From Paraspadella gotoi (taxonomy: Eukaryota > Animalia > Chaetognatha): a stretch of 63,832 nt of DNA. The notes beneath the pieces are model-generated. The model was given only the letters and a program-made list of their open reading frames with translations, was not told where the DNA came from and ran no database searches. A program made the position numbers and the translations under genes. Location: the NCBI GenBank assembly GCA_051294375.1, contig CM119265.1, positions 62,169 through 126,000 of the forward strand, written 5' to 3'. Shown here in pieces: positions 33,425 to 61,636 of the stretch (within the stretch, counting starts at the first letter, position 1; each line of letters begins with the position of its first letter).

Positions 33425-33456
<32 letters not shown>

Positions 33457-36400
33457 GAGGAGGAGGAGGAGGAGAGTTTGGCGAGTTCGATGTTGATAAT
33501 GGATTCGGATTTAAATTAGAGTTCGAACGAAGGGTTTCTCGACGACGGGGGAGGTCGACGAGTGCGAATGCCGGGGCGACGTCCCGGAGGCGGGGGAGAC
33601 GGAGGAGGCGATGGCGTCCGAGGCGGATCTGCGTCACCGGAAGTGTCGTCGTTCGCCTCGAAAGCGGGTTTTAAGCGTGAAATTGAAATGTTTTCATTGC
33701 CTCTCCCTGGAATCGCGATTTTGAATACTAAGTCGTCGCGAGAGATGACGCGGTATGGGCCGAGATACGGAGCTGAGAGGGACGTTGCCACGCCCCCTCG
33801 GCGAACGAAAACGTGAGAGGCGTGGCGTAAGGCGTCCGGGAGATGGATTTGTGGCTGGCGATGCGTGGAGGTTTGCGTTGGCTGAAGTCGAGCGACTTCG
33901 AGGCGGAGTTGAGCGAGCGTGCGTCGGCGTTGTGCGCGCTCCGCGGCGTCACTTCCGGTTTGAGATGAGATGAGGTCGCCGGGAACTGCTATGGGTTCGC
34001 CATAGACTAATTCAGCTGGAGTAGCGCCGACGTCGGGTTTTAAAGTAGTTCGAATGGCTAGTAGTGAGCAGGGTAGGCGCCAATACCAATCGCCATTGGT
34101 ATCAGCGCCCAACGCGATTAATGATTCCTTGAGACGGCGATGAAATCTTTCGACTAAGCCGTTTGATTGAGGATGATAGGGCGTGGTGAGGTTATGGGCT
34201 ATTCCCCATGAGGATAAGAGTTGACGCCACGTTGCTGAAAGGAATTGTGATCCGCGGTCGGTCGTCACTGTCGCTGGGACGCCGAATGCTGAAATCCAGC
34301 CGTGGACGAAGGCGTCAGCGACAGTTTTGGCGAGGATGTCCTTCATGGGGACAGCGATTGGCCAACGTGTGAATCGGTCGACTGCGGTTAAGATATAGTT
34401 ATATCCATTCGAAGGGGGAAGGGTGACGATGTCAATGTGAATATGACTGAAACGTTTGTCAGGTAATTCAAATGTGCCGATGTCGGGAATAGTATTGCGG
34501 ACAACTTTGGCGCGTTGACAGTCTTGGCACTCACGAGACCACCTGGACACGTCGGCGCGCATTGAGGGCCAAACGAATTTGTCAGCGACGGTCTGGCGCG
34601 TTCGCTCGACGCCGGGATGGCCGAGATTGTGAATTGTCTCAAACACACGTCGACGCCACGAGTAAGGCACGAATGGTCTGGGAGGGCCGTTGCTGATGTC
34701 GACGGTTATCGTCGAAGCGCCGAGAGGGAGTTGACGGAAACGTAGTCCAGATGAGGCGTCGGTCGAGATGCGTTGGAAGTCGGCGTCGAGAGGTTGGTCG
34801 GATGCCATTTTCTCCAGATCTAATCCATGTTGGAGAATGGAGAATGCTAATTGATTGACGCTTTGTTGTTTTGCTGCAGGCACTTCCTTGTCGATGGAGG
34901 CGACGATTGGTGGAGGATTGGGATTAGTGGAAGAGAAAGAAGGGAAGAGAGATTGGGGAGTGGGGGATGGGGGAGGGGAAGGAGGAGGGGAATTAGGATC
35001 TGGATTCTTTTCGGCGTTTGGGCGTGACAGCGAATCAGCGACGACGTTTGCCTTGCCGGCGAGATATTGAATGTCCGTTGTAAATTCGGCTATGCCGGCG
35101 AGTTGGTAGGTCTGTCGTGCTGTGTGCGGTTCTGTTTTCTTCGCTAAGGCCGGCACGAGGGATTTGTGATCCGTGTAGAGGGTAAAGTTGCGGCCTTCGA
35201 CCATCATTTTGAAATGGCGGACTGCTCGCCAGGCGGCGAGGAGCTCGCGGTCGAATGGCGGCCATAGCTGTTGATTTTTCTGAAGTTTCGCCGAAAAAAA
35301 TGCTAGTGGTTCCCAGCCTTTGGGACCACGCTGCTCCAGAACAGCGCCTATTGCAGTGTTGGAAGCGTCTGACGTTATTGCCAACGGAGCTCCTGGGCGA
35401 GGATGTCGAAGCATAGCTGCTTGAGAAAGGGCATCCTTGATTGACTCAAAGGCTTGTTGGCAATCTGGAGTCCAGTTCAGTACACGTGGCTTCGTCTTGC
35501 ATTTGAGGGCCTCGAAAAGAGGATAAAGGTGATGAGCTGATCTCGGGACGAAGCGTCGATAGTAATTGACGAGTCCTAGAAATCGTTGCAGCTCCTTTAT
35601 CGTTGTAGGCGGCGTCGTCTTGTTGATGGCGACGACTCTGTCGGGAAGTGGAGATATGCCATTGGCATCGACTCTGTAGCCGAGGAAGTCGAGGCCAGGT
35701 TTTCCCAAAACGCACTTCTGTCGATTTACAACGAGGCCGTTTTGGTGCAGGATGTCGAAAACCTGGCGAAGGTGCTCCTCGTGCTGCTGATGGTTTTCCG
35801 AGGCGACCAAGATATCGTCGATGTAGACGAATAGAAAGGGAAGTCCGTCGAGGATTTCGTCCATAAGACGCTGAAAGTCTTGACCAGCGTTTTTAAGCCC
35901 GAACGGAGTACGTGGAAAAACATATAATCCGAACGGGGTTATTACGCCGGTCTTGGCGACGTCCTCTTCGGCGACGGGTATTTGGTGGTAACCCTTTAGT
36001 AGATCGATTTTACTAAATACTCGTTTACCACTCAAATTGGCGTTGAAGTCGTTTAGCGTTTTGACCGGATACTTATCGTCGATAGTCGCGTTGTTGAGTC
36101 GACGGAAGTCTCCGCAGACTCGATAGCCGCCGTCGGGCTTGTTGACGACTAATAGAGGCGACGCCCACTCGCTTTTGGCGCGGCGAGCGATTCCTAACTC
36201 GCAGAGTTTATCCAGTTCTTTTTTAGCGACTTCAAGTTTGTCTGGGGCCAGTCGTCGAGCTCGAGATTGTACTGGCCTGCCGGTAGTGGGTATGTAATGT
36301 TTGACCCCGTGTTTGGGCTCAGTTGGTTGAAAAGAAGGGGTGCACAAGTTATGATATGAGTCTAGTAATTTGTAATATGGGTCATCTGCTTGTTCAACGA

Positions 36401-36806
36401 AATTGACCCTTATCGGTTGTTGTTTGTTTGCTCTAGATGCAGCTATGGTGCTGTAATCACGCAGATCTATTAAAAAACCATCGCGATGGTTTGGGGCAAG
36501 GAAATGCTCAGCCAGGAAGTCTGAGCCAAGGATTGGTTGTGTGACATCTGCGATGGTTACAATGAAGGAAAAAGAGCGCCTTCCGAGACGGATCTGGACG
36601 TCCTTGTAACCAAAGCAGGATATAAAAGAGCCGTTGGCGGCTTTGAGCTTAGTTTTTGTTTCTCCATTTTCCCGCTCACGTTTTGATGGAGGTATAATGG
36701 AGACGGTGGCTCCGCCGTCGACGAGCCAATTGAGCTTGTTCTTGGCGTCGTGGACGAACAGGAGAGAGTCTTTGGAGTTGACTTGGCCGGCCGGGATGGC
36801 GTTCAC
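33032..36806 (-). CDS. pol: Pol of A4 (one frameshift near 33535 in the integrase tail)
   Basis: ORF 33516-36806 plus tail ORF 33032-33637. Confidence 0.92.
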
Positions 36807-37882
36807 TTCCTCCCGCCGGCCTTCCCGTTTTCCTGCTGTTGACGGAAGCAGCCTGGTTCACAGTTTTTAGCTGCGTCGCCGAATTTGCGATGATAATAGC
36901 ACACGTCAACTCGCGTCGTTTTCTGCTGATATTTTGTAGTATTGGTCGGTGCCCGATCGGCGTTCACTGGGCGTCTGACGTTGTTGAAAGGTCGTCGAGC
37001 GGATTGACCTTGTCGTTGACGATTGACGGCGTTGATTTCGTCGTTGGGCGGCGCTTCGTCGTGCATAAGCGGCGTAATGGGCGGGTTGACGTTGTTGATT
37101 GAGCTGGAGGTTGTCGAGTGGAGAAGCTGGCCGTCGCGGTCGAAGTAGGCGTCGGCGAATTTCGCCGCCGCCTCGGCGTCGACGATTTCGACTCGCTCCG
37201 CTAGGCTGCGCTGAATCTCCGTTGGTAGCTCTCTTAGCAGAAGTTCCTTTAAAATATCGTCCACTGTGACCTTGCCCGCCTTTTCCTTCATGACGGCAAG
37301 AAGCTGTGAAGGACGTCGACCGTCTCGACGGGTACCGTCGATGAGTGAGGCGGCCTGTTGCGAGCGTGTGCGGCCATACTCTTCACGTAGATAACCGATG
37401 AATTCGGTCCAGCGAGCGTCGGAGGCCTCACCGAAAAGAAAAGCATTGATTCGAGGGTTAAAGTCCACAGTGAACTTGTCCTCTAGATGCGCGAATCTTT
37501 CCCTAGCGGAGGTCGTGCCGGCGCGGAGGTAAGCAGCTTCGACGCGCTGGATCCATAACTCCACGTTTTCGGCGTCAAAGTCGGGGAGTTTCGGCTTTTT
37601 GAGAGACAAACTCTGGAGTGACGCCGCGAGGGTGGTCGCGAGGGTGCGGACGAGTTCCGCCTGTGGATCAGGCGTTGGAGCTGACGCCATTGCTGGCGGC
37701 GTCGTTGGGAAGTCGAAGTTCGATTGGGAGACGTTTGACGTTGGAGAGCGGCGCCCTCTGCCAAATCCACAGAGGAGTGGAGGCGCGAGACGGTTGGCGT
37801 GGTCGTGGGAAGGCGTGGAGGCGTCGTCTGAGGTGCTGGGCTGCACTGCGCGCGCTCGAGTGCCACGTGCCGGTCCACTCAT
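36803..37882 (-). CDS. gag: Gag of A4 (359 aa)
   Basis: CHCC motif; homology to the other Gag copies. Confidence 0.93.
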   Translation of the reverse strand: MSGPARGTRARAVQPSTSDDASTPSHDHANRLAPPLLCGFGRGRRSPTSNVSQSNFDFPTTPPAMASAPTPDPQAELVRTLATTLAASLQSLSLKKPKLPDFDAENVELWIQRVEAAYLRAGTTSARERFAHLEDKFTVDFNPRINAFLFGEASDARWTEFIGYLREEYGRTRSQQAASLIDGTRRDGRRPSQLLAVMKEKAGKVTVDDILKELLLRELPTEIQRSLAERVEIVDAEAAAKFADAYFDRDGQLLHSTTSSSINNVNPPITPLMHDEAPPNDEINAVNRQRQGQSARRPFNNVRRPVNADRAPTNTTKYQQKTTRVDVCYYHRKFGDAAKNCEPGCFRQQQENGKAGGRK

Positions 37883-38341
37883 TCGTTGGAGTTGATCAGG
37901 CGAAATGGAAAGGAGAGAGGGATGTGGTAAGCGATAGGCAAGTTTTGCAGCCTAATTAATTCACAATTCTTGCCTACCTGAGGGAAAAACCTCTTGAGAG
38001 TCCAATTTGATCCCGTTGGTTTCGACTTCTTTGGATTTGTTTGTTGAAATTGTTTTTAAAACATTCGAAGTAGAGTGTCAGCGAGATTACCAGGCTAATT
38101 TTGTGAAAAAGTATGTCTAAGGCTTATTACAGGTTCGTTAGAGGCAGCAGGCTTTTGATTAGCTTCAGAAGGTTGGTTTTTGTTCAAGTCGGGCTCACCA
38201 GTTGTAGAGGTGAACACCCAGGCACCGAGAGAGTTAAAACAGNNNNNNNNNNNNNNNNNNNNNNNNNNNNNNNNNNNNNNNNNNNNNNNNNNNNNNNNNN
38301 NNNNNNNNNNNNNNNNNNNNNNNNNNNNNNNNNNNNNNNNN

Positions 38342-38744
38342 NGGGTTAGGGTTAGGGGTTAGGGTTAGGGTTAGGGTTAGGGTTATTAGGGTTAGGGGTT
38401 AGGGTTAGGTTAGAGGTAGGTTAGGGTTAGGGGTGTTAGGGTTAGGGTTAGGGTTAGGGTTAGGGTTAGGGTGTAGGGTTAGGGTTAGGGTTAGGGTTAG
38501 GGTTAGGGTTAGGGATTAGGGTTAGGTTAGGGTTAGGGTTAGGGTTAGGGTGGGTTTAGGGTTAGGGTTAGGGTTAGGGTTAGGGTTAGGGTTAGGGTTA
38601 GGTTAGGGTTAGGGTTAGGGTTAGGTTAGGGTTAGGGTTAGGGTTAGGGTTAGGGGGTTAGGTTAGGGTTAGGGTTAGGGTTAGGGTTAGGGTTAGGTAG
38701 GTTAGGGTTAGGGTTAGGGTTAGGGGTTAGGGTTAGGGTTAGGG

Positions 38745-38798
<54 letters not shown>

Positions 38799-39178
38799 GG
38801 TTAGGGTTAGGGTTAGGGTTAGGGTTAGGGTTAGGGTTAGGGTTAGGGTTAGGGTTAGGGTTAGGGTTAGGGTTAGGGTTAGGGTTAGGGTTAGGGTTAG
38901 GGTTAGGGTTAGGGTTAGGGTTAGGGTTAGGTGTTAGGGTTAGGGTTAGGGTTAGGGTTAGGGTTAGGGTTAGGGTTAGGGTTAGGGTTAGGGTTAGGGT
39001 TAGGGTTAGGGTTAGGGTTAGGGTTGGTTAGGGTTAGGGTTAGGTTAGGGTTAGGGTTAGGGTTAGGGTGTTAGGGTTAGGGTTAGGGTTAGGGTTAGGG
39101 TTAGGGTTAGGGTTAGGGTTAGGGTTAGGGTGTTAGGGTTAGGGTTAGGGGGTTAGGGGTTAGGGTTAGGGTTAGGGT
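38342..39178 (+). repeat. (TTAGGG)n tract 3
   Basis: tandem TTAGGG. Confidence 0.99.
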
Positions 39179-39879
39179 TCGCGGCCACTCGAGACAATTA
39201 ATTTCGGTGAAGAAATAATTATTCCAGAGTTGAATTCGAACCATCGAACTCAGGCCTGGGACGCTGGGACTATAGCCAATCAGAACCAGGAGGCCATGAG
39301 TCTTAGATGATTAAAACAGATCTTATAGCTTAAATCTTCTTCGAAGCCTTTGTTTTCAACTCAGATCAACTGATTTGTTCACAATCAATAGATGCTTCCC
39401 GCCTTTTCAAACTGATTAGTTCAACTGATTGTTTACCTGAAAAATCGATTTCTCTGATTATGTCACTGCTGGTTTTTAATCTCGAAATAAAACGTTGATC
39501 TTTCACAATAAAAAACATTGTTTTTAATTCTTCTCTCAATGTAAATAATACATTCTTCAAAGAGAAAAACCTTATTGTTGAAACTCTCTCAATTTGAATT
39601 CGAATTCTTAATAATCAAGTAATTTCTTCTACAAATGATTAAACTTCGATTTAAATATCTCAAACTGATTTAAACTCATTCGACTTGATTTTAACCTCGA
39701 TATTAAAATATCAAATTGAAAACAATCAACTCTGTCTATAATGTGACACGCTTTCCCTGCCCGGCAAGTTCATCTTCACTGAAGTGGATTCACTTTACTC
39801 GATTAGCTACGCGTCACGTTCCTGTCAAGCCGAGCGAGTGCCACGAGTCACGCTGTGGTGACCTCGATGTCGAGCCACA
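39179..39879 (+). repeat. 5' LTR of B3
   Basis: direct repeat of 45253-45947; antisense B-box variant at 39232-39242. Confidence 0.93.
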
Positions 39880-40065
39880 CATGGTGAAACCGACGACAAA
39901 CCAAAGCCAACCTTCAAGAAGGGATTCGACTTCACTCGGCTTTCCCCGAGGTAAGATTGGGCGGCGAAAGGGGTAATTGGCAAATCGCCCAATTATTAAC
40001 ACCCTCACTCCCTTCTTTTCGAATCCTACCGCTACCGGAGTCCACAACGCCACAACTCAGTGTCA

Positions 40066-41148
40066 ATGAGCGACCCCGACCTCCGCTCTCGCCTACGCTC
40101 TGCGCAGCGAAACGTCGACGACCAGCGCGACGCCGCTTCGAACCTACAAATACCCATAGGCTTCGGGCGAGGAGCGAGATCAAGGTCAACGTCTCCAGTT
40201 TTCGCCGACGCAGCTCCATCCTTCAACTTTCAGCCGACGAACGCCGGCAACTTCGTCGACGCCGAGATGGCGACAGGCGCTTCCAATCCACACGACCTTC
40301 AGGATGAAAACGCGGAACTCCGCGCGGCATTGGCCGCCGCCACTCGAGCCCTGGAAAGAGCAGCGAATCGAAAACCGGACTTGCCTGACTTCGACGCCTC
40401 TAATATCGAGATATGGATTAAGAGGGTCGAAGCAGCCTATACTAGAGCAGGGATTACAGCTCCTAAAGCGAAATTTGCGCATCTCGAATCTAAGATTGGA
40501 GTAAAGGTCGACCCGCGAATCAACCAGTTCCTCTATGGCGACCCTACAGAAGCAGCATGGCTCAGTTTCATAGACTACTTAAGAAAAGAGTACGGACTTA
40601 CTCGTCGCCAACAGGCGGCGAATCTACTCGACGCCATCGACGCAGACGGATTAAAACCCTCAAAGATTTTAGCACAACTGGAAGAAAAAACGCGCAATGT
40701 GACTCTAGACGATCTCCGAAAAGAAAAAGTGCTCCGGGAACTACCTATCGAAGTGAGAAGGCAGCTGGAGGACAAGGCGGACGAGTTATCAGCTCGTCAA
40801 CTCTGTGAGATGGCGGACCGCCATTTCGACAACGACGGCAACTTACGAATCCGCCAGTCATCGAATATCGTCAACCACGTCGATAGAAGTCAGCGAGACC
40901 AGAGCGAATCTGATTCGGACGACGACAACGGCGTCAACGCCGTTAACAGCAGCAACAAGCGCGCCTTCAACGCTAAAAAGAAACAACCTCACGCTAGGAA
41001 AGAGAAAGCAAAGGCAAAGCTCGTTACTTTGTGTCAGAAACACATAAAATTCGGGAATGACGCCTGGTCATGTGAGCCAGGGTGTTCAAAATTTGACGAG
41101 AGCCTGAAAAAACGTGAGGGAAACGCCAAAGGGGGACGACGTCGGTGA
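40066..41148 (+). CDS. gag: Gag of B3
   Basis: ATG at 40066 (MSDPDLRSRL); CQKHIKFGNDAWSCEPGC. Confidence 0.94.
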   Translation: MSDPDLRSRLRSAQRNVDDQRDAASNLQIPIGFGRGARSRSTSPVFADAAPSFNFQPTNAGNFVDAEMATGASNPHDLQDENAELRAALAAATRALERAANRKPDLPDFDASNIEIWIKRVEAAYTRAGITAPKAKFAHLESKIGVKVDPRINQFLYGDPTEAAWLSFIDYLRKEYGLTRRQQAANLLDAIDADGLKPSKILAQLEEKTRNVTLDDLRKEKVLRELPIEVRRQLEDKADELSARQLCEMADRHFDNDGNLRIRQSSNIVNHVDRSQRDQSESDSDDDNGVNAVNSSNKRAFNAKKKQPHARKEKAKAKLVTLCQKHIKFGNDAWSCEPGCSKFDESLKKREGNAKGGRRR

Positions 41149-41160
41149 ACGCCGTCCCCC
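41118..41160 (+). promoter_or_regulatory. -1 ribosomal frameshift signal
   Basis: canonical G_GGA_AAC heptamer, 6-nt spacer, hairpin GGGGGACG/CGTCCCCC. Confidence 0.85.
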
Positions 41161-44100
41161 TCGCTTCAACTCAATCACCGTCGACAAATAACCTCTTATA
41201 CATTCGCGACGCCGGCGATCGGACTAAGTGGTTGGTCGACGGCGGGGCTCTACTATCGATCGTCCCGCCTACAAAGGAGCAACGTCAAGCCGGCCCAGAT
41301 CCAAAGATCCGCCTTCAAGCCGCCAACGGCTCACCGATTGAGTGTTATGGGACAGTCGACAAAGTGGTTCAACTCGGCAATAGAAAGTTTAATTATGAAT
41401 TCATCGTCGCCAATGTCAAACAATTCATACTAGGCGCGGATTTCCTTGCTGAGAACTTTCTAGCACCTAACCACAGGGATGGACTACTACTTGATCTGCG
41501 TGATTACTCAACAATCGCCGCTTCAGTGGCGTCAGAAACTCCAGCGCACATCAACCTCGTCGACCGACAGGGCGAGCGATATTATAAACTCCTCGACTCT
41601 TTCCCATCACTAGCCACGCCAACTTTCGAGGTGAAAGATCCTAAGCATGGAGTTACACACTCCATTCCCACTGAAGGCAGACCATGCCAATCAAGGGCAC
41701 GCCGCTTAGATCCAGAAAAGCTGGCCGTCGCTAAACGTGAGCTGGAGAAAATGGTTTCTCTGGGCATAGCTCGACGTGGAAAATCTGAATGGTCATCTCC
41801 GCTTCATGTTGTGGAAAAACCCGACGGCGGATGGCGTTGTTGTGGGGATTACAGGCGCCTAAATTCCCAAACAATAGATGACAAATATCCAGTTAAACTT
41901 CTAACGGATTTTAACTCACAGCTTGAGGGAAAGACGATTTTTTCTAAAATCGATCTTTTGAAGGGCTATCATCAGATACCCGTCAATCCTGATGACGTTA
42001 AAAAAACGGCGGTTATCACCCCGTTTGGATTGTATGTCTTTCCACGTTGCCCATTCGGTCTTAAGAATGCCGGGCAAGATTTTCAGAGGCTCATGGATGA
42101 GATCTTGGGGGAAATCCCCCATACCTTTGTTTATCTTGACGACATTCTTGTTGCCTCATCGTCACCAGAGGAGCATTACCAAGACCTCGAGCGCGTGTTT
42201 AAAGCACTGGATGCCAACGGCTTAGTAGTAAATACTAAGAAATGTCTGCTAGGACAGGACTCGCTGGAGTTCCTAGGCTTCTTGGTGGACAAAAATGGCG
42301 TACGACCTCTGCCTAAACGCGTACAGACTCTCCAAGAAACGACAAGGCCAACTACCATCAAGGAACTCCAGCGGTTCCTAGGTATGGTAAATTACTACAG
42401 GCGCTTTATTCCGAAAGTCGCCCATAGATGCGCACCACTTTACGACGCATTAAGTGGCAAACCGAAAACCCTCGAATGGACAAGCGACTGCGATCGAGCA
42501 TTCGAAGCCATCAAGGAAGGATTAGTGCAAGCGGCTCTCCTCCACCACCCCAGAACCGGCGCTCAATTGTGCATCACGACCGACGCGTCGGACCAGGCAG
42601 TGGGCGCGGTCCTGGAGCAGCGTGGGCCAAAAGGCTGGGAACCGCTCGCCTTTTTTTCGACCAAACTGGCCAAAAACCAGAGGTTATGGCCTCCCTTCGA
42701 CAAGGAGCTTTTCGGCGCCTTCAAGGCCGTCCGGCATTTCCGGCATTGGGTGGAAGGACGTTCTTTTACGTTGTACACCGATCACCAGAGTTTGGTCTCA
42801 GCCATAAGGAAAAAGTCGGAACCACAAACAGTGCGTCAATCCTATCAATTGTCTGTCATTGCAGAATTTACGACGGATGTTAGGTACTTAAAGGGCAAGG
42901 CGAACGTGGTCGCCGACGCCCTATCTCGACCTAACGCCCTGCCGACGACGACGACTCCGCCGACGAATCCCTCCACGTCAGCGACGCAGGCCTCAACGCC
43001 AACGTCAACAGATTCACCGGCGACTCGGCCCAAAAACTCAATGACGACCTCATCATCAAGCGAGACCGCTCATACGCCTTCATCATCGACAGCGACGACC
43101 GATTCCGCGCTCATAGCGTCAACATCCTCAACAGAAAACGAAAAAGAGAGAGGAATAAAGGAGAATCGACTCGAGGACGCCCACGCGTTAATATCGTCGC
43201 TAACAAACTTCGAAATAAACTTCGAACAAATGGCAAGGGAGCAGGTGCTTGATCCAGATTACCAGAGCATAGCAGAGAATGCAAGATCAGGACTCTCATT
43301 TAGAAAAATTAAAGTGGGGGAACAAGATCTACTCGTTGACGTTTCAAACGGGCCGGCGCGCCCATTCGTCCCGGCGTCATGGCGCCGGCGGATTTTCGAC
43401 ATTATACATGGACTCGGCCATCCGGGAGTAGAGGCCACACGCAAAGCAGTCGCGGCCAAATTCGTCTGGACGTCGATGCGCCAAGACGTGACGAAGTGGG
43501 CGCGGGACTGCTTGGACTGCCAGCGAGCCAAAGTTACCAGACACGTTGTCCCGGAAATCGGCGAGTTTAAGGTGCCACCACAACGATTTCAACATCTCAA
43601 CTTAGATCTCGTTAAAATGCCAACGTCTAACGGCTTCTCTCACTTACTAACAATAGTCGACAGGTTTTCGAGATGGCCGTCAGCCATCCCGATCAAGGAC
43701 ACCCTCACTACAACCATTCTAGATGCTTTGAGTCACAATTGGATTAGTGTGTTCGGCACGCCCACAATAATCACCACCGATAGAGGAACTCAATTTAATT
43801 CCGCGCTGTGGCGTCAATTGACCAAAAGCTGGGGAATTAAACATCAGATGACGACCTCCTACCACCCCCAGGCGAACGGCCTAGTAGAACGATTTCATAG
43901 GAGGTTGAAGGAGTCCCTCATCGCCCTCGCTCGAGAAAACCGTGAAAAATGGTTTTGGAAGCTTCCAATGACAATGCTCGCAATTCGTACGACTATCAAA
44001 GAGGACATCGGCGCCTCCGCGGCCGATTTGGTCTTCGGCGAGGGCATCAGAGTCCCCGGCGCCCTTCTCGACGACCCTCAAAACGACAACGCCGAGCTAC

Positions 44101-44912
44101 AACGTCAACGACGGAACCAATTGGCGAAACTGCGCGTCGAGGTGGCGAGGCTACAACCAACTCCAACATCAGCTCATCACCATCCGACAATCCATCTTCC
44201 AAGCAACCTCCAGACGGCACAATACGTTTTCGTCAAACGCGCAGGCGTCAATCCACCCTTGGTCCCGCCCTACGAGGGCCCCTACAAGGTAATTAACAGA
44301 AATGGAATTAATTTTACAATTGAAATTCCCAGCGTCGGACGAGAGACGATCAACATCGCGCGCGTGAAGCCAGCTTGGGTCAGCGACGAGACGCTGGAGG
44401 TCGATCAAGCACACCCCCAGCGACGCCCACCAGGCCGTCGACCCGGTCCCAGGACAACAACGCCGGCGCCAACATCACGAATCACGCGTTCAAATCATCA
44501 ACGCGCCTCTTCACCCGATCCGACGCCTCCGTCTCCTCCTCCTCCTCCTCCTCCTCCTCCTCCTCCTTCACCGACCGTCTCCCCGACCTCACCCAAGCAA
44601 CCCCATCGTCTCCCCGACCCCCACCAGTCGCCTTTACGTTTTTTCTCAAATCCTTCCCATTCTCCCGAGCCTCCACGCAAGACGAGTCCAGCGTCAAAAA
44701 GGCAAAAAGGGGAAGACAACAACAACAACAACGAAAAGAGAGAGAATGAGCCAATCATCGAACGTTTCTCTAAGCCAAGCTCAGACGACTTCTCACGAAG
44801 ATGTCCAGGCATGACAAGACCTACATATTCCGTTGTACTGAAGGAGATGCTCAGAAGACAAAACGATCACAACAACAACAACCAAAAAAGCAAAAGTCCC
44901 CCTGTCACCTAA
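41145..44912 (+). CDS. pol: Pol of B3 (1255 aa, intact; probably made as Gag-Pol)
   Basis: uninterrupted ORF with PR, RT, RNase H, IN, GPY motif and long C-terminal tail. Confidence 0.97.
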   Translation: MNAVPLASTQSPSTNNLLYIRDAGDRTKWLVDGGALLSIVPPTKEQRQAGPDPKIRLQAANGSPIECYGTVDKVVQLGNRKFNYEFIVANVKQFILGADFLAENFLAPNHRDGLLLDLRDYSTIAASVASETPAHINLVDRQGERYYKLLDSFPSLATPTFEVKDPKHGVTHSIPTEGRPCQSRARRLDPEKLAVAKRELEKMVSLGIARRGKSEWSSPLHVVEKPDGGWRCCGDYRRLNSQTIDDKYPVKLLTDFNSQLEGKTIFSKIDLLKGYHQIPVNPDDVKKTAVITPFGLYVFPRCPFGLKNAGQDFQRLMDEILGEIPHTFVYLDDILVASSSPEEHYQDLERVFKALDANGLVVNTKKCLLGQDSLEFLGFLVDKNGVRPLPKRVQTLQETTRPTTIKELQRFLGMVNYYRRFIPKVAHRCAPLYDALSGKPKTLEWTSDCDRAFEAIKEGLVQAALLHHPRTGAQLCITTDASDQAVGAVLEQRGPKGWEPLAFFSTKLAKNQRLWPPFDKELFGAFKAVRHFRHWVEGRSFTLYTDHQSLVSAIRKKSEPQTVRQSYQLSVIAEFTTDVRYLKGKANVVADALSRPNALPTTTTPPTNPSTSATQASTPTSTDSPATRPKNSMTTSSSSETAHTPSSSTATTDSALIASTSSTENEKERGIKENRLEDAHALISSLTNFEINFEQMAREQVLDPDYQSIAENARSGLSFRKIKVGEQDLLVDVSNGPARPFVPASWRRRIFDIIHGLGHPGVEATRKAVAAKFVWTSMRQDVTKWARDCLDCQRAKVTRHVVPEIGEFKVPPQRFQHLNLDLVKMPTSNGFSHLLTIVDRFSRWPSAIPIKDTLTTTILDALSHNWISVFGTPTIITTDRGTQFNSALWRQLTKSWGIKHQMTTSYHPQANGLVERFHRRLKESLIALARENREKWFWKLPMTMLAIRTTIKEDIGASAADLVFGEGIRVPGALLDDPQNDNAELQRQRRNQLAKLRVEVARLQPTPTSAHHHPTIHLPSNLQTAQYVFVKRAGVNPPLVPPYEGPYKVINRNGINFTIEIPSVGRETINIARVKPAWVSDETLEVDQAHPQRRPPGRRPGPRTTTPAPTSRITRSNHQRASSPDPTPPSPPPPPPPPPPPSPTVSPTSPKQPHRLPDPHQSPLRFFSNPSHSPEPPRKTSPASKRQKGEDNNNNNEKRENEPIIERFSKPSSDDFSRRCPGMTRPTYSVVLKEMLRRQNDHNNNNQKSKSPPVT

Positions 44913-45252
44913 CTGACAATCGGAGCGTCTTCTCCCAGGCATCCTCGGTCTTCCTCCCGCCAGCTCCGATTGCCAGTGGCCTAATTGTACAGTATTTTAC
45001 AAATTTGATTATTATTTTACAAAGTTTAGTAATTTTTGGTTGTTATGGAATTTTTTGAAATGTTATGGAATGACGATGGAGTAATTTTTGCACGTTTAAA
45101 CCGGTCTTTAGACCAAATTTTTATTTTTCGTTGTATATAGAAGTATATATATTTTAGAGAAATTAATTATCAACACACAAGTCAAACACACAGATGGACG
45201 ACAACTAATTTTGTTATAATATGTTATTACCCATTATTACAACAGGGGGGCA

Positions 45253-45947
45253 TGCGGCCACCTGAGACAATTAATTTCGGTGTATTCCAGAGTTGGATTC
45301 GAACCATCGAACTCAGGCCTGGGACGCTGGGACTATGAGCAATCAGCACCAGGAAGGCCATGAGTCTTAGATGATTAAAACAGATCTTATAGGCTTTAAT
45401 CCTTCTTCTTCGAAGCCAGCCTTTTGTTTTCAACTCAGATCAACTGATTTGTTCACACAATCAAATAGATGGCTTCCCGCCTTTTCAAACTGATTAGTTT
45501 CAACTGATTGTTACCTGAAAATCGATTTCTCTGATTATAGTCACTCTGGTTTTTAATCTCGAAATAAAACGTTGATCTTTCACAATAAAAAACATTGTTT
45601 TTAATTCTTCTCTCAATGTAAATAATACATTCCTTCAAAGAGAAAAACCTTATTGTTGAAACTCTCTCAATTTGAATTCGAATTCTTAATAATCAAGTAA
45701 ATATCTTCTACAATGATTTAAACTTCGATTTAAAATATTCAAACTGATTTAAAACTCATTCGACTTGATTTTAACCTCGATATTAAAATATCAAATTGAA
45801 AACATCAACTCTGTTATAATGTGAGCACGCTTTCCCTGCCCGGCAGGTTCATCTTCACTTGAAGTGGATTCACTTACTCGATTAGTTACGCGTCACGTTC
45901 CTGTCACGCCACGAGTCACGCTGTGGTGACCTCGATGTCGAGCCACA
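45253..45947 (+). repeat. 3' LTR of B3
   Basis: TGCGGCC...GCCACA after the PPT; GGATTCGAACC at 45295-45305. Confidence 0.93.
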
Positions 45948-46541
45948 TGGGTTAGGGTTAGGGTTAGGTTAGGGTTTAAGGGTTAGGGTTAGGGGTTAGG
46001 GTTAGGGGTTAGGGTGTAGGGTTAGGGTTAGGTTAGGGTTGGGTTAGGGTTAGGGTTAGGGTTAGGGTTAGGGTTAGAGGGTTAGGGTTGGTTAGGGTTA
46101 GGGTTAGGGTGTTAGGGTTAGTAGGGTTAGGGTTAGGGTTAGGGTTTAGGCGTTTAGGGTTAGGGGTTAGGTTTAAGGGTTAGGGGGTTAGGGGTTTAGG
46201 GTTAGGGTTAGGGTTAGGGTTAGGTAGTTAGGGTTAGGGTTAGGGAGGGTTAGGTTAGGGTTAGGTTAGGGTTAGGGTTAGGGTTAGGGTTGTGTGGTGG
46301 GTTAGGGGGTTAGGGGTTAGGGTTAGGGTTAGGGTTAGGGTTAGGTGTTAGCGGGTTAGGGTTAGGGTTAGGTTAGGGTTAGGTGGTTAGGGTTAGGGTT
46401 AGGGTAGGGTTAGGGTTAGGGTTAGGGTTGGGGTTTAGGTTAGGGGTTAGGGTTAGGGTTAGGGGGTTAGGTTTAGGGTTAGGGTTAGGGGTTAGGGTTA
46501 GGGTTAGGGGTTAGGGTTAGTGGTTAGGGTTAGGGTTAGGG

Positions 46542-46578
<37 letters not shown>

Positions 46579-46617
46579 GTTAGGGTTTTAGGGTTAGGGT
46601 TTAGGTTAGGTTAGGGT
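45948..46617 (+). repeat. (TTAGGG)n tract 4 (noisy)
   Basis: tandem TTAGGG with variant units. Confidence 0.98.
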
Positions 46618-47051
46618 TGTAGCCTGTGACCGCAGAAAAATAATAATAATATTTTTATAATAACCGAATCATTAATTATTAATTAATTAATCCTTCCATG
46701 ATTAATATCCTTCTATTACGAGTCCTCTGATAATTAATTACGAGTTATAAATAACACTTACCTGATCGGATTCGAACCAGCGACCTAGCGGCCCATAGTC
46801 CGATGCTCTAACCACTTGGCCGCCGAGACACTTTAGTTACAAATGATTGGAACTTCCTCATATTGAATTCTGAAAGCTCCCGACGTCCCTTTTGTTTTAT
46901 ATATCGAATCCAAGGGCCTTCGTTATCGTTATTAATCCAAAATGGCCGCTGCTGATAAGCAGATGATATTTGTAACCTTTACAGAGACGATTCGGTTATA
47001 AGTCACTTCTCTTTGATCCTGTAACTCTGCCAGGGTATTCGCCTATCTACA
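46618..47051 (+). repeat. 5' LTR of A5, with antisense A/B-box module at 46759-46831
   Basis: direct repeat of 52724-53158; reverse complement has CGGCCAAGTGG and GGTTCGAATCC. Confidence 0.93.
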
Positions 47052-47357
47052 ACTGGTGAGCCCAACTCGAACTGATTTACCAACCTCTGATACTTATCTC
47101 AAAACCTACCGCCAATCTTACTGAGCTTAGAACTTATTCATCGAAAATGAGTCTTTTCCTCTAAACTGAATAAACAACTAATAAATCAAACAAAACAGAA
47201 GAAAACGGAGGACAACGTTTCCAAGAGGTCGTTCAGCGGATCCAATCGTCTCCTCAGGTAGGCAAGACGTGAAGCATTAGGCTAATTTTCCTTGCCTATC
47301 TCTCACCACGACCTTCCTCCCTTTTCTTTCCCCCTTTCCAACGCCATCAACTGACGA

Positions 47358-48449
47358 ATGAGTGGCCCTGCCGGCAGCACCCGCGCACGAATCGCGCAAA
47401 CCAGCAGCACCAGTGAAGCTTCTCCAGGTGCTCCAGACAACGCCGCCTTCCTTCAACCTCCACCTTCCGCTGCAATTGGATTTGGGCGTGGCAGACGCTC
47501 TCCAAACGCGATCGCCGCCCAAGGCAACTTCAATTTCCAACCGACGTCTCCATTCGCCGCCCACATGGCCGCCGCCGCGGCGCCAGATCCTCAGGAGGAA
47601 CTCGTCCGCGCCCTCGCCGCCACGCTCTCTGCATCCCTTCAGGGCATGTCTCTTAAGAAGCCTAAGTTACCCGACTTCGACGCTGATANNNNNNNNNNGT
47701 GGATACAGCGAGTGGAGGCGGCCTACACTCGCGCAGGCACCTCCACAGCCAAGGAAAAGTNNNNNNNNNNAGAGGACAAGTTCGCTGTCGACTTTAACCC
47801 TCGCGTTAACGCCTTTCTCTTCGGAACGGCCGACGACACCCAATGGACAGCTTTCCTCGATTATCTCAGGACCGAATATGGCCGAACTCGGTCACAACAA
47901 GCGTCATCTCTGATCGATGGCACTCGTCGAGAGGGCCGTCGACCTTCTCAGCTCCTCGCCATCATGAAGGAGAAGGCGGGGAAAGTCACAGTGGATGATA
48001 TCCTCAAAGAATTACTCCTACGCGAATTACCAACGGAAATTCAGCGAAATCTAGCGGAGAGAGTCGAATCCGTCGACGCCGAGACGGCCGCCAAATTCGC
48101 CGACGCTTACTTCGACAAAGAAGGAAAACCTCTACACTCAGCGTCATCAACGGCGGCCTTCGCCGTCAATCAGCCGATTCCCAATCTGATGCAGGACGAC
48201 ACCTTTTCAAATGACGACATAAACGCCGTCAATCGACCTCGTCAAGGTCAAGCAGCCCGTCGACCTTTCAGCGCAGCACGTCGACCAGCGAATCCCGATA
48301 AGGCAACTATGGATCATAGCCATCAGTCGAAAACGTCAAAAGTAGAAATATGCTACTATCATCGAAAATTCGGCGACTNNNNNNNNNNATGTGAGTCAGG
48401 CTGTTTCCGTTATCGCACGGAAAACTCGAAGGCCGGCGNNNNNNNNNNA
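47358..48449 (+). CDS. gag: Gag of A5 (end obscured by Ns)
   Basis: MSGPAG start; CYYHRKFGD....CESGC. Confidence 0.88.
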
Positions 48450-51400
48450 ACGCCATCCCGACCGGCCCAATTATCAACAGCAACGATGCCCTTCTCTTCG
48501 TTCACGATAGCGACAACAAACTCACGTGGCTCGTCGACGGCGGCGCCACAGTGTCCATCGTTCCCCCAACTAAACAAGAGAGAGAACGAGGAGAAAATAA
48601 AACTAAACTCAGGGCAGCTAACGGATCTCCCATTCCCTGTTTTGGTTACAAGGACGTCCAGGTCCGTCTCGGAGGTAGAAAATTTCCCTTCACTGTAACC
48701 ATTGCAGAAGTCACTCAACCCATATTAGGCTCAGACTTTTTGGCTGAGCACTATCTCGCCCCAAACCATCGAGATGGTTTTTTAATAGACCTGCAGAATT
48801 TTAGTACAATCCCAGCATCAAAAGCAAATAAGCAACAACCTTTAAGGGTAAATTTCGTCGATCAGGCCGACGACCCCTATTATAAGTTATTAGATACTTA
48901 CCATGACCTTTGCACTCCATCGTTTCAACCAAAGGACCCTAAACATGGAGTGAGACATTACATTCCCACAACAGGTCGTCCAGTTCAATCGCGAGCCCGT
49001 CGATTGGCCCCCGACAAACTCGAGGTGGCCAAGAAGGAGCTGGACAAACTCTGCGAACTAGGCATCGCCCGCCGCGCCAAAAGCGAGTGGGCGTCGCCCT
49101 TGCTCGTCGTCAACAAACCGGACGGCGGTTACCGCGTTTGTGGAGACTTTCGTCGCCTAAACAACGCCACCCTCGACGACAAATACCCGGTGAAAACCCT
49201 TAACGACTTCAACGCCAACTTGTGTGGAAAGAAAGTCTTCAGTAAAATCGATTTACTGAAGGGTTATCACCAGATACCCGTGGCCGACGAGGACATACAA
49301 AAAACCGGCGTCATAACTCCATTCGGCTTATATGTCTTCCCTAGGACCCCGTTCGGTCTAAAGAACGCGGGTCAAGACTTTCAACGCTTGATGGATGAAA
49401 TTCTTGATGGACTTCCCTACGTCTTTGTGTATATCGATGATATACTGGTCGCCTCCAAAAATCACGAGGAACACGAGAAACACCTCCGAGAAGTTTTCGA
49501 TACACTTCACCAAAACGGTCTTGTTGTCAACAGACAGAAATGTGTATTGGGAAAGCCTTCTCTAGAATTTTTAGGCTACCACGTAGACGCCAACGGGATC
49601 TCCCCACTACCAGGGAGAGTGGCCGCCATTAACGAGACCACACCACCCACAACCATAAAGGAACTCCAAAGGTTCCTGGGGATGATCAATTATTATAGGC
49701 GATTCATCCCCAGGTCAGCTCATCACCTCTATCCACTCTTCGAGGCATTGAAAACAAAAACGAGGCCACGCACCTTAGACTGGACGCCAGCTTGCCAACA
49801 AGCTTTTGATTCCATTAAGCAAGCACTCGCTAAGGCCACAATGCTTTGCCATCCTCGACCAGGTGCATCCCTAGNNNNNNNNNNTGACGCCTCAAACACG
49901 GCAATAGGCGCCGTATTGGAACAAAGAGGCCCTCGTGGCTGGGAGCCACTGGCATTTTTTTCTGCCAAACTACAAAAGAGTCAACAATTATGGCCTCCAT
50001 TCGATCGGGAATTGCTCGCAGCATGGCGAGCCATTCGCCACTTCAGAACCATGATCGAAGGCCAAAAATTCACACTCTACACAGACCACAAATCGTTGAT
50101 TCCAGCATTAGCAAAAAAATCAGAGCCACACACGGCACGACAAACTTACCAGCTCGCCGGCATAGCGGAATTTACCACCGATATACAATACCTCGCCGGC
50201 AAAGCAAACGTCGTCGCCGATTCTCTGTCTCGACCAAATGCTGAGAAAAATCCGAATTCGAATCCTTCTCCTCCTACTCCTTCTTCTCCCCCTCCCTCAC
50301 CCACTCCCCAACCTCTCTTCCCTTCTTTCTCTGCCCCCATTCCCTCTCCTCCCCCAATTGTAGCTACAATCGACAAAGAAGTCCCCACGGAGAAGCAACA
50401 AGATCTCGATCAACTCGTTTACTCAATCCTTCAACACGGTTTGGACATGCAAAAGATGGCCGTCGACCAGCCACTGGACGCCGAGTTTCGACGCATCACA
50501 ACCGACGCTAGTTCCAGCCTCCGTTTCCGCCGGATCCCGATTGGAGAAACGTCTATCACAGTCGACATTAGTAATGGCCCTCCTCGCCCCTTCGTGCCAT
50601 TCTCCTGGCGCCGTCGAGTCTTCGAGACGGTCCACAATCTGGGCCATCCCGGCGTCGAGAGGACACGACAAACAATCAGCGAAAAATTCGTGTGGCCCTC
50701 AATGCGCGCCGATGTCTCTCGGTGGGCTCGAGAGTGCCACGAATGTCAGCGGTCCAAAGTAACGCGAAATACGGTGCGGAAATAGGCACCTTCGAAACTC
50801 CCTGAGCGCCGCTTCAATATATTCAACGTCGACATCGTGACCCTTCCATCATCGAACGGATTTAACTATGTCTTAACGGCCGTCGACAGATTCACTCGAT
50901 GGCCGACAGCTATCCCCATGAAGGATATCGCAGCCAAGACCGTCGCCGACGCTCTCGTCCATGGCTGGATATCCTCCTTCGGAGTGCCGGCCACTATTAC
51001 AACAGATCGAGGTTCCCAATTCCTCTCCTCGACATGGCGACAATTATTATCTTCATGGGGAATTTCTCACAACTTAACTACAGCCTACCATCCCCAATCG
51101 AACGGCCTCGTAGAGAGGTTCCACCGGCGCTTAAAAGAAGCCCTCATCGCTCTCGGCGCTGATTCACGAGGAGATTGGTATTGGCGACTTCCCTGCGCCC
51201 TTCTCGCCATCAGGACGACGCTCAAACCTGACGTCGGCGCCTCTCCAGCCGAACTCGTATATGGAGAAGCAATAGCGGTCCCTGGGGACCTAATTTCGAC
51301 TCAGACCGGAAGTGACGCCCGCGAGAGAGAGCAACGACGCCGCACACTCGCCAATTTGCGCCTCGAGGTCTCACGTCTACAACCAGCTCCAACGACAACT

Positions 51401-52240
51401 CACCGTCAACCTCGCGTGCATCTTCCCGACGCCTTACGACACGCCTCACACGTATACGTCCGTAGAGGAGGCGTGGCCACGTCTTTATCGGCGCCATATC
51501 TCGGACCATATCGCGTAATCTCTCGTGATCAATTAACTTTTAAAATCGAAATCCCTGGACGACAAAACGAAAACGTTTCAATCTCTCGCCTAAAACCCGC
51601 TTTCGAGGCGGACGACGACGCCGGAAATGACGCCAGCGGCGGCGCTAGGTCCACCACGCACGCCGTCGCCTCCTCCCTCGGCCCCCGCCGGGCCGGCGTC
51701 CCGGAATCAGAAGCCGTTTCCCCGCTCCATCAACTCGGAATCTTCGATCAAGTACAACCGAGAACTCGTCCGCTCCGTCCTCCTCCTCTCTCCTCCTCCT
51801 CCTCCTCCCTCCCCCCCCCTCACCTGCCCCCCTACCTCCCCGCGACCACATCGACCTTCACTTCCCTCCCTGGTCGATTTCCCCCTTAAAACATAAAAAA
51901 AACAAACCGGGCCAAAAAGTAAACAAAGATGTAAACAAACCGGTAAGATCAAGAGGAGGAAGAGCAATTCGACGCCAACGAAGACGATTCCAGCCCAACG
52001 CAACACGAGGCATCCCCGGAGACGATCCCCTTCCTGCCCTCGTCCCCTCGTCGCTTCCCTCGCCTCATATATTCTCGAAACCAACGCCCGATAATTTTTT
52101 CATATCGAGCGGCGAGGCGTCAAAATTCGCCTTCAAACGTCAACTCCACTCGCCGTCCTACTCGGCGGTCGCTAGCACCATGTGCTCCAGCAAATCAACA
52201 ACGAGGAGACCTCTCCATCACAAACTCGAACGGGTCAGTG
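48446..52240 (+). CDS. pol: Pol of A5 (frameshifts near 50780-50830 and in the tail, likely sequence error)
   Basis: ORFs 48551-50785 and 50837-51889; the tail reads cleanly in the duplicate at 53818-54522. Confidence 0.88.
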
Positions 52241-52723
52241 AATCACAAAACTCATTCTTTTTCAGTTAACCTGGTGAAATTCAATCCTGTCCTGAATTCA
52301 CCCTTTCAAAAAAACTTTAAATTACATTTTTTCAATTTCAATTGTCGTTTATTTCACTCGAATACATCTCGAAATATTTTTAATTATGTTAAACGTTAAT
52401 AAGAACGTTACATAATCATCGAATTAATCGCGAATCTCGTTACTCATCCTAATCATCAAAAATTTAAAACCCGTTACTCGTTCCAAATTATTTATCACCG
52501 TTTACTATCGTTTATCATCTTTAAAAAACGATTCGATTTTTACTTAGCTTGAACGACAGTGTATACTACTATTCTAACGTGTTTTACCTATACCTTTTAA
52601 AAAACTTAGATCACAATCGTAGTAAATACTTTTATTAACAAACGATCTTTATTCACAAAGGCTTTTTAAACTTTAGATAAAATCGCGCCAAAATATTTTT
52701 TCCCCTAATTTTATCTGGGGGCG

Positions 52724-53158
52724 TGTAGCCTTTGACCTGGCAGAAAAAATAATAATAATTATTTTTATAATAACCGAATCAATTATTTAATTAATTAATC
52801 TCCATGTAATATCCTTCTATTACGAGTCTCTGATAATTAATTACGAGTTATAAATAACACTTACCTGATCGGATTCGAACCAGCGACCTAGCGGCCCATA
52901 AGTCCGATGCTCTAACCACTTGGCCGCCGAGACACTTTAGTTACAAATGATTGGAACTTCCTCATATGAATTCTGGAGAAAGCTCCCGACGTCCCTTTTG
53001 TTTTATATATCGAATCCAAGGGCCTTCGTTATCGTTATTAATCCAAAATGGCCGCTGCTGATAAGCAGATGATATTGTTAACCTTTACAGAGACGATTCG
53101 GTTATAAGTCACTTCTCTTTGATCCTGTAACTCTGCCAGGGGTATTCGCCTATCTACA
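52724..53158 (+). repeat. 3' LTR of A5
   Basis: TGTAG...CTACA; A/B-box module at 52862-52935. Confidence 0.93.
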
Positions 53159-53289
53159 GGCTTAGGGTTAGGGTTAGGTTAGGGTTAGGGTTTAGTGTAG
53201 GGTAAGGTTTTGGGGTTAGGGTAAGGGTTAGGGTTAGGGTTAGGTTAGGGTTAGGTTAGGGTTAGGGTTAGGGTTAGGGTTAGGTTAGG
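53159..53289 (+). repeat. (TTAGGG)n tract 5
   Basis: tandem TTAGGG, noisy. Confidence 0.97.
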
Positions 53290-53413
53290 TGTCGTGGCTC
53301 CGAGTGGCGTTGATACGCCACGAGATGACGCGACAACTGAGGGTGGCTACACTAAGCAAGCGTAGCGAGTGACTCCTTCGTGACGAGTTAGCGTAGCGCA
53401 GGGAAAGTGACAC
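53290..53413 (-). mobile_element. U5 end of a family B LTR in reverse orientation, running into a gap
   Basis: homologous to 14812-14937 (CTCCGAGTGGCGTTGATACGC...GCGCAGGGAAAGTGA); no PBS adjacent. Confidence 0.8.
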
Positions 53414-53513: not shown

Positions 53514-54522
53514 AAAAGGTATATAAAACACTAAGTGTTCAACTAAGTAAAAATCGAATCGTTTTTTAAAGATGATAAACGATAGTAAACGGTGATAAAT
53601 AATTTGGACGAGTAACGGGTTTTAAAATTTTTGATGATTAGGATGAGTAACGAGATTCGCGATTAATTCGATGATTATAGTAACGTTCTTATTAACGTTT
53701 AACATATTAAAAATATTTCGAGATGTATCGAGTGAAATAAACGACAATTGAAATTGAAAAAAATAAATTTAAAGTTTTTGAAAGGGTGAATTCAGGACAG
53801 GATTGAATTTCACCAGGTTAACGAAAAAGAATGAGTTTGNNNNNNNNNNGACCCGTTCGAGTTTGTGATGGAGAGGTCTCCTCGTTGTTGATTTGCTGGA
53901 GCACATGTGCTAGCACCGCCGAGTAGGAACGGCGAGTGGAGTTGACGTTTGAAGGCGAATTTTGACGCCTCGCCGCTCGATATGAAAAATTATCGGGCGT
54001 TGGTTTCGAGAATATATGAGGGCGAGGGGAGCGACGAGGGGACGAGGCAGGAAGGGGATCGTCTCCGGGGATGCCTCGTGCTTGCGTTGGGCTGGAATCG
54101 TCTTCGTTGGCGTCGAATTGCTCTTCCTCCTCTTGATCTTCCGGTTTGTTTACATCTTTGTTTACTTTTTGGCCCGGTTTGTTTATTTTATGTTTTAAAG
54201 GGGGAAAATCGACCAGGGAAGGGAAGTGAAGGGTCGATGTTGGTCGGGGGGAGGTAGGGGGAGGGGNNNNNNNNNNNNNNNNNNNNGGAGGAGGAGGAGG
54301 AGGAGGAGGAGGAGCGGACGAGTTCTCGGTTGTACTTGATCGAAGATTCCGAGTTGATGGAGCGGGGAAACGGCTTCTGATTCCGGGACGCCGGCCCGGC
54401 GGGGGCGGCGAGGGAGGAGGCGACGGCGTGCGTGGTGGACTAGCGCCGCCGCTGGCGTCATTTCCGGCGTCGTCGTCCGCCTCGAAAGCGGGTTTTAGGC
54501 GAGAGATTGAAACGTTTTCGTT
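53514..54522 (-). other. inverted duplicate of the A5 integrase tail and 3' UTR between two gaps
   Basis: reverse complement of about 51569-52597; bounded by 100-N gaps. Confidence 0.85.
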
Positions 54523-54622: not shown

Positions 54623-55938
54623 GGTTTTCTAGTAAAAAACATGAAATGTTCTTGAATGTCATGCAAAAAAAGTCTTTTGATGCATATGATGATAAACGAT
54701 TTATACTTTAGCTCATGGACATTATAAAGTTCCATTTATCAAAGAACAATGGAATGAAGATTTGAATAGTCTTGTTAAATTGATATAATTTTTTTTAGAA
54801 TGACGATGTGTCCAATTCAACTGGAGATTGAGATGGATTTTTTAAAGTAATAGGGTTTTTTTAATTTTTCTTCAATTTTTTTTCTTATCTGTGGGACATT
54901 GTTTTAAAACATTGTTTGTAAGCACTTAGCCTCTAACCTAATTTGTTACCTTACATTCATGCTGGGGCGCAAGCCATTCTCACTCTTCAAAAATAAAGAA
55001 TCAATCCAAAAAAAAAAAAAAAAAATAAATCACGAGATTTAATAAATATAATCACGAGCAGCAGCCAACATGACGTGAGTTAGTAGAGAGAGACGCGAGC
55101 TTTATAGATAGAGAGAGCCAAGAGCGGAGTCAAAAGCTGTTACAAATCAGATAATTTCAATGTTTAGAATCATTTCAAAAAGTTACAGAATATTCCTTCA
55201 TCATGGTTACCCTAATGTTTCCTGGGCAATCTCCTACAGAAGTTTAACGATCTATTGCTTTCATACTTCTTTAAATGGAAAGAGACCAATTAAAAACGAT
55301 GTTCGCACTCTTTGAGAATACTACAGATAATGTGATCAGAAAGGTCTCGCCAATCAGGAATTAAGAACCAAATAATAACCCAATGAAATCACAGAATAGA
55401 AGGACCCGCGAGTTGTGAGAATTTAAGCTAGTACTTATTGTATTCATATAAAACCGAATATTAACTTTCGAAAAAACTAATTAATATTAATAAACTATTT
55501 AACACTTATCAATTAATTTTTAACAAACATTTTTGATTTTTTCATTTAGAACAAAGTTTTTGAAAAGAGATAAACAATGATTTTATTTCAAATTTTTTCA
55601 AATAAATCACAATGAAACAGAAAGGAAAAATACATAATGATTTTTTCATAAAGAAATAATTAAGAGTTTTTTTATTTAGTACTATTTTTTTAGTTTATAA
55701 AATTTTATAAAAACTTCTCTAGATTCTTTAATCACAGTTTCAATTTCATCTGCATTGGGAGTTTAATTGAGATATGCCCCTATATTTTTTTTCAAAAAGT
55801 TTACAAGTAAATTTGTAAAAATGTAAATGTTTTAGTTTAAAAATATTTACTTATTAAATATGAATAAAATGTAGACTTATGTTAATGCTGGTTTATTGCA
55901 TTTTCTTTTTAATTACAGAATAAAGTATCAATAATATG
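54623..55938. other. AT-rich segment with no similarity to the elements; possible host or subtelomeric DNA
   Basis: no long ORF, A-run near 55008-55025, not repeated elsewhere in the window. Confidence 0.55.
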
Positions 55939-61294: not shown

Positions 61295-61636
61295 ATCAGC
61301 AGCCGGAGCTAGGGATGCTTCATCCATCTTCCTCCATCGTCACGACGTCAGCTCCGACTGCTGAAAAGCTAGCTTGGCTACCACTCTCTATCTTTGTATA
61401 TAGCAAGCTATATAATATTTGATATTTATTCGATTTTACAATATTTTGAATGTTTTTAATTTTTGAAATTTTTATGTCAGTCGGTCAATCGTCTATTTCA
61501 GGAGGAATATCTTAAAATTGTTATTTTTTACCATTTTATTTTCACAAACACACACATACTCGTGGACGACAAACAATATTATTGATATATATTAATTTCA
61601 ATTTTGCTTTATATTATATATCCCAACAAGGGGGGA

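Follow-up and report, generated by a model that had tools for sequence, protein, structure and literature searches.

Long terminal repeat retrotransposons of the CsRn1 type probably join telomeric TTAGGG repeats mostly in one register in Paraspadella gotoi

What fixes the point at which a retrotransposon meets a telomeric repeat is the question raised by a stretch of the genome of the chaetognath Paraspadella gotoi (assembly GCA_051294375.1, contig CM119265.1, positions 62,169 to 126,000), all 63,832 nucleotides of which were analysed and are referred to here as the window. An array of long terminal repeat (LTR) element DNA of the CsRn1 type (Ty3/gypsy) makes up the window, comprising two lineages (families 1 and 2, approximately 68% alike in reverse transcriptase (RT)-RNase H) and a Helenus-like terminal-repeat retrotransposon in miniature (TRIM), spaced by six plus-strand TTAGGG tracts of 130-1090 nt each; of 18 long frames scanned with Pfam, 11 have matches to models of RT, RNase H or integrase, arranged as in Ty3/gypsy. 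The assembly is noisy, with 18 N gaps, blocks that are duplicated or inverted, and 11-29 indel events versus 1-9 substitutions per LTR pair. Inspection of the LTR-repeat boundaries leads us to conclude that the elements probably join the repeat mostly as GGGT/TG...CA/GGGT (the slash marking the boundary), using an integrase that cuts with a 4-base stagger; the stagger is suggested by the two junction registers together with the 4-bp target-site duplication (TSD) known for the clade.

We set the LTR ends independently of the repeats, using the partner LTR, the polypurine tract (PPT) and the primer-binding site (PBS), and scored each junction by edit distance against all six repeat registers; one element without a partner LTR in the window (E1) took its terminus from a sibling family-1 LTR. 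One of the 12 tract ends lies at an N gap, and all of the remaining 11 adjoin an LTR terminus, none of them an internal break. The GGGT register is uniquely best at five of these 11 junctions, tied at four, and not best at two. The five include the left junctions of E1 (family 1, 4828-10017, interrupted by an N100 gap, 5′ LTR 4828-5278), of E4 (full-length family 1, 46618-53158, LTRs 46618-47051 and 52724-53158) and of the TRIM (63266-63832, 5′ LTR 63266-63545, 3′ LTR from 63669 and exiting the window), the last being an exact GGGT/TG though within a very noisy tract. The others are right junctions reading exactly CA/GGGTTA, at the end of a family-1 3′ LTR that lies behind a PPT (22341-22784) and at the end of E5 (full-length family 2, 55939-62175, LTRs 55939-56479 and 61637-62175). 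The ties, each one edit from the GGGT model, are at 23419, where E2 (the 5′ part of a family-1 element, 23419-26131) fits AGGG equally well, at 39179 and 45947, the two ends of E3 (full-length family 2, 39179-45947, LTRs 39179-39879 and 45253-45947, CHCC Gag 40000-41148, Pol 41118-44912 in the -1 frame), and at 53158, the right end of E4; at 39179 the tie is between GGGT and GGTT. All of these elements are on the plus strand. A preliminary description made from the letters alone had listed these positions as exact and near matches, and its coordinates are correct: the exact left (4828, 46618 and 63266) and right (22784 and 62175) junctions are borne out, and the near matches are near matches that also fit other registers.

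The exact GGGT junctions represent five insertions across family 1, family 2 and the TRIM, and because their LTRs are only 31-66% identical they are not copies of one event. The probability of five insertions falling in one of six registers by chance is (1/6)^4 = 7.7e-4, a figure that covers the exact cases only and omits three of the eight insertions, which are tied or discordant (E0/E2, E3 and a reversed LTR). Ten of the 11 junctions are alike in orientation.

Counting junction phase in accurate reads had been proposed as the check on this register, and short-read contigs provide it for one side. The E3 pol region was found in eight sequencing runs of one organism from two studies, with runs X5 and X6 being separate samples of the second study, and X1 possibly being the source of the assembly. 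In the contigs, the sole loose end of the E4-type LTR end (47051) is telomeric repeat starting from GGGTTA, in X1, X5 and X6 (three of four runs, covering three samples and both studies, with X3 not among the rows listed). The right junction CA/GGGTTA is thus confirmed and its register is real for the E4 subfamily, and, given the GGGTTA in the contigs, the C at 53158+3 most probably reflects an error in the reads.

Judged by their motifs, the elements are probably members of the CsRn1 clade. All seven Gag frames examined carry the CX2HX9CX3C (CHCC) motif, one of them with X's between motif residues, and the Gag is similar to DUF7041 clusters. Five unbroken Pol frames match RT, RNase H, H2C2 and rve in order, a weak protease match is present in one further frame, the Pol alignment contains a GP[YF] motif, E3 and E5 have pol overlapping gag in the -1 frame, and none of the 18 frames scanned with Pfam matches an env or chromodomain. 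LTRs of the autonomous elements are 410-700 bp long, and the PBSs begin with TGGTG(A/G), 1-2 nt past the LTR, which may resemble a tRNA-Trp PBS. The CsRn1 clade (CsRn1, PwRn1, AgCR1-14) likewise has the CX2HX9CX3C Gag, a protease-RT-RNase H-integrase order, a GPY/F-like motif, a -1 gag-pol overlap, a 4-bp TSD, and neither env nor chromodomain (PMC2582038). The CHCC motif in seven of seven Gag frames and the RT-RNase H-integrase order would place our elements with a clade in which all CsRn1-like elements have a 4-bp TSD (PMC2582038). They differ from it in using one telomeric 4-mer at most junctions, whereas no preferred target nucleotide is reported for the clade (PMC2582038), and in their 410-700 bp LTRs, several with an antisense tRNA-like stretch. 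A 4-bp duplication is ordinary for the clade; the novelty lies in LTR elements that use telomeric repeats in phase.

A GGGT duplication made by the integrase, strictly of 4 modulo 6, is the best reading of these junctions and is partly supported. In the mechanism we propose, the integrase would join the element ends at TTA^GGGT on the G strand and at CTA^ACCC on the C strand, and repair of the 4-base stagger would yield the GGGT duplication. Of the 18 options for register and length (lengths 4, 5 and 6), the GGGT one alone places TA immediately 5′ to the cut on each strand, and it alone has flanks that are complementary at ±1 as well as at ±2; an intasome of two-fold symmetry that mildly prefers TA before the cut would choose this register with no need to read the repeat in full. 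We infer that the integrase chooses the register because only there do both attacked bonds follow TA, with the same flank on each side. Delivery to the tracts is the least certain step; it would most likely depend on a tether to host telomeres or heterochromatin, and some copies would land in other places. The shared orientation of 10 of the 11 junctions suggests that such a tether is asymmetric, comparable to that of Ty5 by Sir4 (PMC4700185). The TRIM would use family-1 enzymes, as its PBS start and PPT are the same as those of family 1. The earlier proposal that site choice is integrase-determined is supported for the choice of register and not for the delivery of the elements to telomeric DNA. 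Taken as a whole, the picture of LTR elements specialised for telomeric repeats, namely two CsRn1-type lineages and a Helenus-like parasite with a telomere-tethered DDE integrase acting in one orientation at TTA^GGGT, is plausible but slightly less likely than not, and telomeric targeting is a preference, not an exclusive rule.

Several observations weigh against this picture, beginning with the registers themselves. The junction at 4623 prefers TAGG by one edit, and at 53289/53290 a reversed family-2 LTR 3′ end (53290-53413, minus strand) lies against tract 5 as TTAGG/TG, which lends GGGT no support; under the GGGT model it requires two homopolymer losses, within noisy sequence that has a gap 124 nt away. 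The recurring register of the preliminary description accounts for the five unique and four tied junctions but not for these two, which fit other registers better; that description had also passed over both the reversed LTR and the left flank of E5. The fixed register at the left junctions is likely, and is read only from the noisy assembly. The TA symmetry was spotted after the register was known and is post hoc, and no targeting domain was seen, the Pfam scan giving no chromodomain and the frames no common F/YxLxP motif. As a candidate, the TRFH-docking F/YxLxP motif was rejected, being present in two of six frames at unrelated positions.

The remaining contrary observations concern E5. Its 5′ LTR is preceded by AT-rich non-telomeric DNA ending in TATG (55938/55939), which does not match the GGGTTA on its right, so there is no matching duplication. 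This left flank, considered as a possible homopolymer-collapsed GGGT, is a high-depth repeat in X1, where the contig match reaches 55938 with no extra letters and the contig carries four more letters past that point. A lack of coverage over 55953-56060 in X1 carries no weight. In X7 the start of an E5-type LTR is flanked by A-rich non-telomeric sequence, and X1, X5 and X7 all contain an E5-type LTR fragment, truncated on its left, that adjoins a 12-bp satellite; among the 18 rows listed, no E5 LTR contig has a telomeric loose end. TA is beside the presumed 4-mer at none of the three non-telomeric flanks, two of which are not clean integrase junctions. The satellite join, which has three letters in common with the PBS side and no LTR terminus at its left end, may not be an integrase product. 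We conclude that the E5 subfamily also occurs outside telomeric repeats. The unmatched flanks of E5 could reflect recombination of two copies, only one of which was telomeric, or a chimera created by the assembly. In X1 the satellite-joined E5-type LTR (contigs over 56127-56482) is deeper than the PBS path, at 76 versus 21.

These flanks suit an explanation that retains the same integrase chemistry and contests only the delivery step, namely that the elements insert genome-wide with a slight local preference and the tracts merely offer many identical, good and tolerant sites at which insertions accumulate and are retained. It gains from the non-telomeric flanks of E5-type LTRs in the window and in X1, X5 and X7, and from the known CsRn1 members without target preference (PMC2582038). 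Phylogeny bears on it in both directions. Families 1 and 2 form separate branches among 30 outside relatives (Shimodaira-Hasegawa-like approximate likelihood ratio supports of 93 and 95), so that no common tether is implied, yet a single clade of the two is not rejected by the approximately unbiased (AU) test (p 0.21; the 30 were drawn from 120 listed homologues as neighbours of both families in a 128-row tree), so that their origin may be common or repeated. Against accumulation, the E4 subfamily LTR end has only the telomeric flank type in three samples, and the shared orientation of 10 of the 11 junctions is unexpected under a purely symmetric choice. In X6 the E4 LTR contig has a depth of 118.7 compared to 5.6-8.7 for E5 pieces, with the reservation that contig depth is not copy number and contigs drop rare variants. 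We regard accumulation and retention as possible but rather unlikely.

Telomerase adds GGGTTA to a 3′ A, and CA/GGGTTA is the register that would result if breaks at LTR ends had been healed by telomerase and exchange between chromosome ends had then built the array. Healing would also explain the telomeric right flank and non-telomeric left flank of E5, and the single junction that accurate contigs bear out lies on the right side. It cannot, however, put G-strand repeats upstream of a 5′ LTR, and it leaves unexplained five left junctions that stop at the first base of the LTR, three of them exactly GGGT/TG; nor does any of the 11 tract junctions start at an internal break. Healing had been disfavoured from the outset, and we agree that it is improbable.

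The length of the duplication could be misread in either of two ways, through loss of the third T of a 5-bp GGGTT to homopolymer error, or through a 10-bp duplication in a periodic target, for which the junctions give 4 modulo 6; the latter had been recognised as formally possible, as it is. The indel load of the LTR pairs and the tie of GGGT with GGTT at 39179 are in keeping with a 5-bp form. That form would require TTT to have been read as TT at four left junctions, with p between 1.6e-4 and 4.4e-4 if errors are independent (an error model in which 59-76 of 524 tract G-runs are shortened), 23419 is one edit worse under it, and TSDs of CsRn1-like elements (PMC2582038) and animal Helenus (PMC10886601) are 4 bp. 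Either alternative length is highly improbable.

Least credible is an assembly artefact in which telomeric reads were stitched to collapsed elements and polishing then homogenised the joins, for although the 18 N gaps, the duplicated or inverted blocks and the noisy tracts invite it, stitching gives no cause for joins at LTR termini in one register, and the LTR-repeat junction is present in the second-study contigs X5 and X6, which refutes an artefact for the E4 right junction.

How the array compares with known telomere-associated elements can be set out by position and by chemistry. The TRAS/SART, MoTeR, FoTeR and Tx1-1_ACar elements likewise have a fixed site in telomeric repeats and lie in tract-spaced arrays, and they insert through an endonuclease with target-primed reverse transcription, in contrast to the LTRs and DDE integrase found here (PMC4700185, PMC10088271, PMC12857005). 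The window thus has the fixed position in the telomeric repeat (five unique and four tied junctions of 11) without the non-LTR structure, since LTRs, PBS, PPT and integrase are present; as to confinement to telomeric repeats, E5 departs from it, and the E4 subfamily right flank is seen only as telomeric. The telomeric-repeat-specific elements surveyed in PMC10088271 (Fig. 5 legend) are all in long interspersed nuclear element (LINE) clades, and the elements described as targeting repeats strictly are non-LTR elements together with a small number of DNA transposons (PMC3706591, PMC8869645). Preferred short targets are also known for Ty3/gypsy integrases, in the errantiviruses gypsy, ZAM and Idefix, but their 4-mers are palindromic (TATA, CGCG, ATAT) and dispersed (PMC5408687), whereas here it is the flanks that are symmetric, around a 4-mer that is non-palindromic and tandemly repeated.

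The copia-type elements Ty5 and Tal1 are LTR elements too. Both are steered to repeat-rich domains, Ty5 to telomeric heterochromatin by Sir4 (PMC4700185) and Tal1 to CENH3 chromatin (PMC12859917), and offer a model for the tether proposed here; they are chromatin-tethered, and the available parts of these papers describe no fixed telomeric-repeat register. The TRIM at 63266 is like the Helenus TRIMs in being short and non-coding, with a PBS, a PPT and a tRNA-like stretch in the LTR (PMC10886601); animal Helenus elements produce TSDs of 4 bp and are presumed to rely on Gypsy enzymes, and the string "telomer" is absent from the main text of that paper.

We found no fixed-site LTR element inside telomeric repeats in the full-text literature, a search that had most subscription journals, Repbase Reports and supplements outside its scope; the parts available of PMC3026039, PMC12471100, PMC12859917 and PMC12581995 contain no telomere-targeted LTR element. 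Repbase Reports has published at least one telomere-specific non-LTR family (PMC10088271, ref. 7), so a prior description there is possible. If the reading is true, these elements would be an LTR counterpart of TRAS/SART and would provide a natural site-specific retroviral-type integrase for TTAGGG, adding a third chemistry to this strategy for survival. A periodic target offers six registers in one substrate and could separate tethering from direct reading of the target. Should the tracts prove to be chromosome ends, arrays of this kind would also bear on telomere structure and on the poor assembly of ends.

The best among the listed homologues are 61-67% identical to E3 Pol. A metagenome scan yielded one locus (L001) from 476 pattern matches, and none of 60 viral contigs carried a related locus, with no matches to the exact left-junction pattern. 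Positions 1-2200 of L001 are 60% identical in Pol, share the CHCC Gag and contain the PBS TGGTGA, with the LTR cut by the contig start.

The rest of the array can be read from left to right. E0 (1-4624, plus strand) is the 3′ part of a family-1 element, and its 3′ LTR (4209-4624) is 97% identical to the LTR at 23419. The two pieces also have an overlapping 857-nt segment at 91% identity, and on these similarities E0 and E2 are probably one insertion split by the assembly. The TTAGGG tracts are at 4625-4827, 22785-23418, 38343-39178 (its left end being an N100 gap), 45948-46617, 53159-53289 (noisy) and 62176-63265 (the noisiest). Minus-strand blocks at 10118-22221, 26304-38242 and 53514-54522 are bounded by N gaps and none of them meets a tract, which makes their orientation uninformative, and the order and orientation of blocks in the assembly may be wrong.

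In the Pol frames (for example 41118-44912 and 9804-13580), RNase H is separated from integrase by a low-complexity linker, rich in Ser, Thr, Ala and Pro, that varies in length, and a proline-rich tail follows GP[YF]. The autonomous LTRs contain an antisense tRNA-like stretch with A and B boxes, such as 4971-5043 (minus strand), with counterparts in the LTRs at 4362, 15374, 22505, 23569, 45305, 46778 and 52881. In family 1 it begins approximately 20 nt past TATAAA; the E1 copy scores 34.8 bits, above the Rfam tRNA threshold, and the B box is missing from the E5 LTRs. This tRNA-like stretch could act as a barrier for RNA polymerase III or as an antisense promoter. In the non-coding TRIM, which has a 280-nt LTR and an internal region of approximately 120 nt with PBS and PPT, the tRNA-like stretch is in the sense direction, with a TGGCT box-A start and a GGTTC box B in the 3′ LTR copy; neither ARAGORN nor Rfam called it.

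An LTR at 14812-15437 (minus strand) has a PPT before it and a PBS after it, like a tandem pair with a common LTR; it may be an assembly collapse, and 15542-16837 duplicates 11747-13036 at 91%. In the region of the E5 left flank, 54623-54790 contains a frameshifted fragment reading KKSFDAYDDKRF ... AHGHYK, which may resemble the end of a Polinton-type DNA polymerase.

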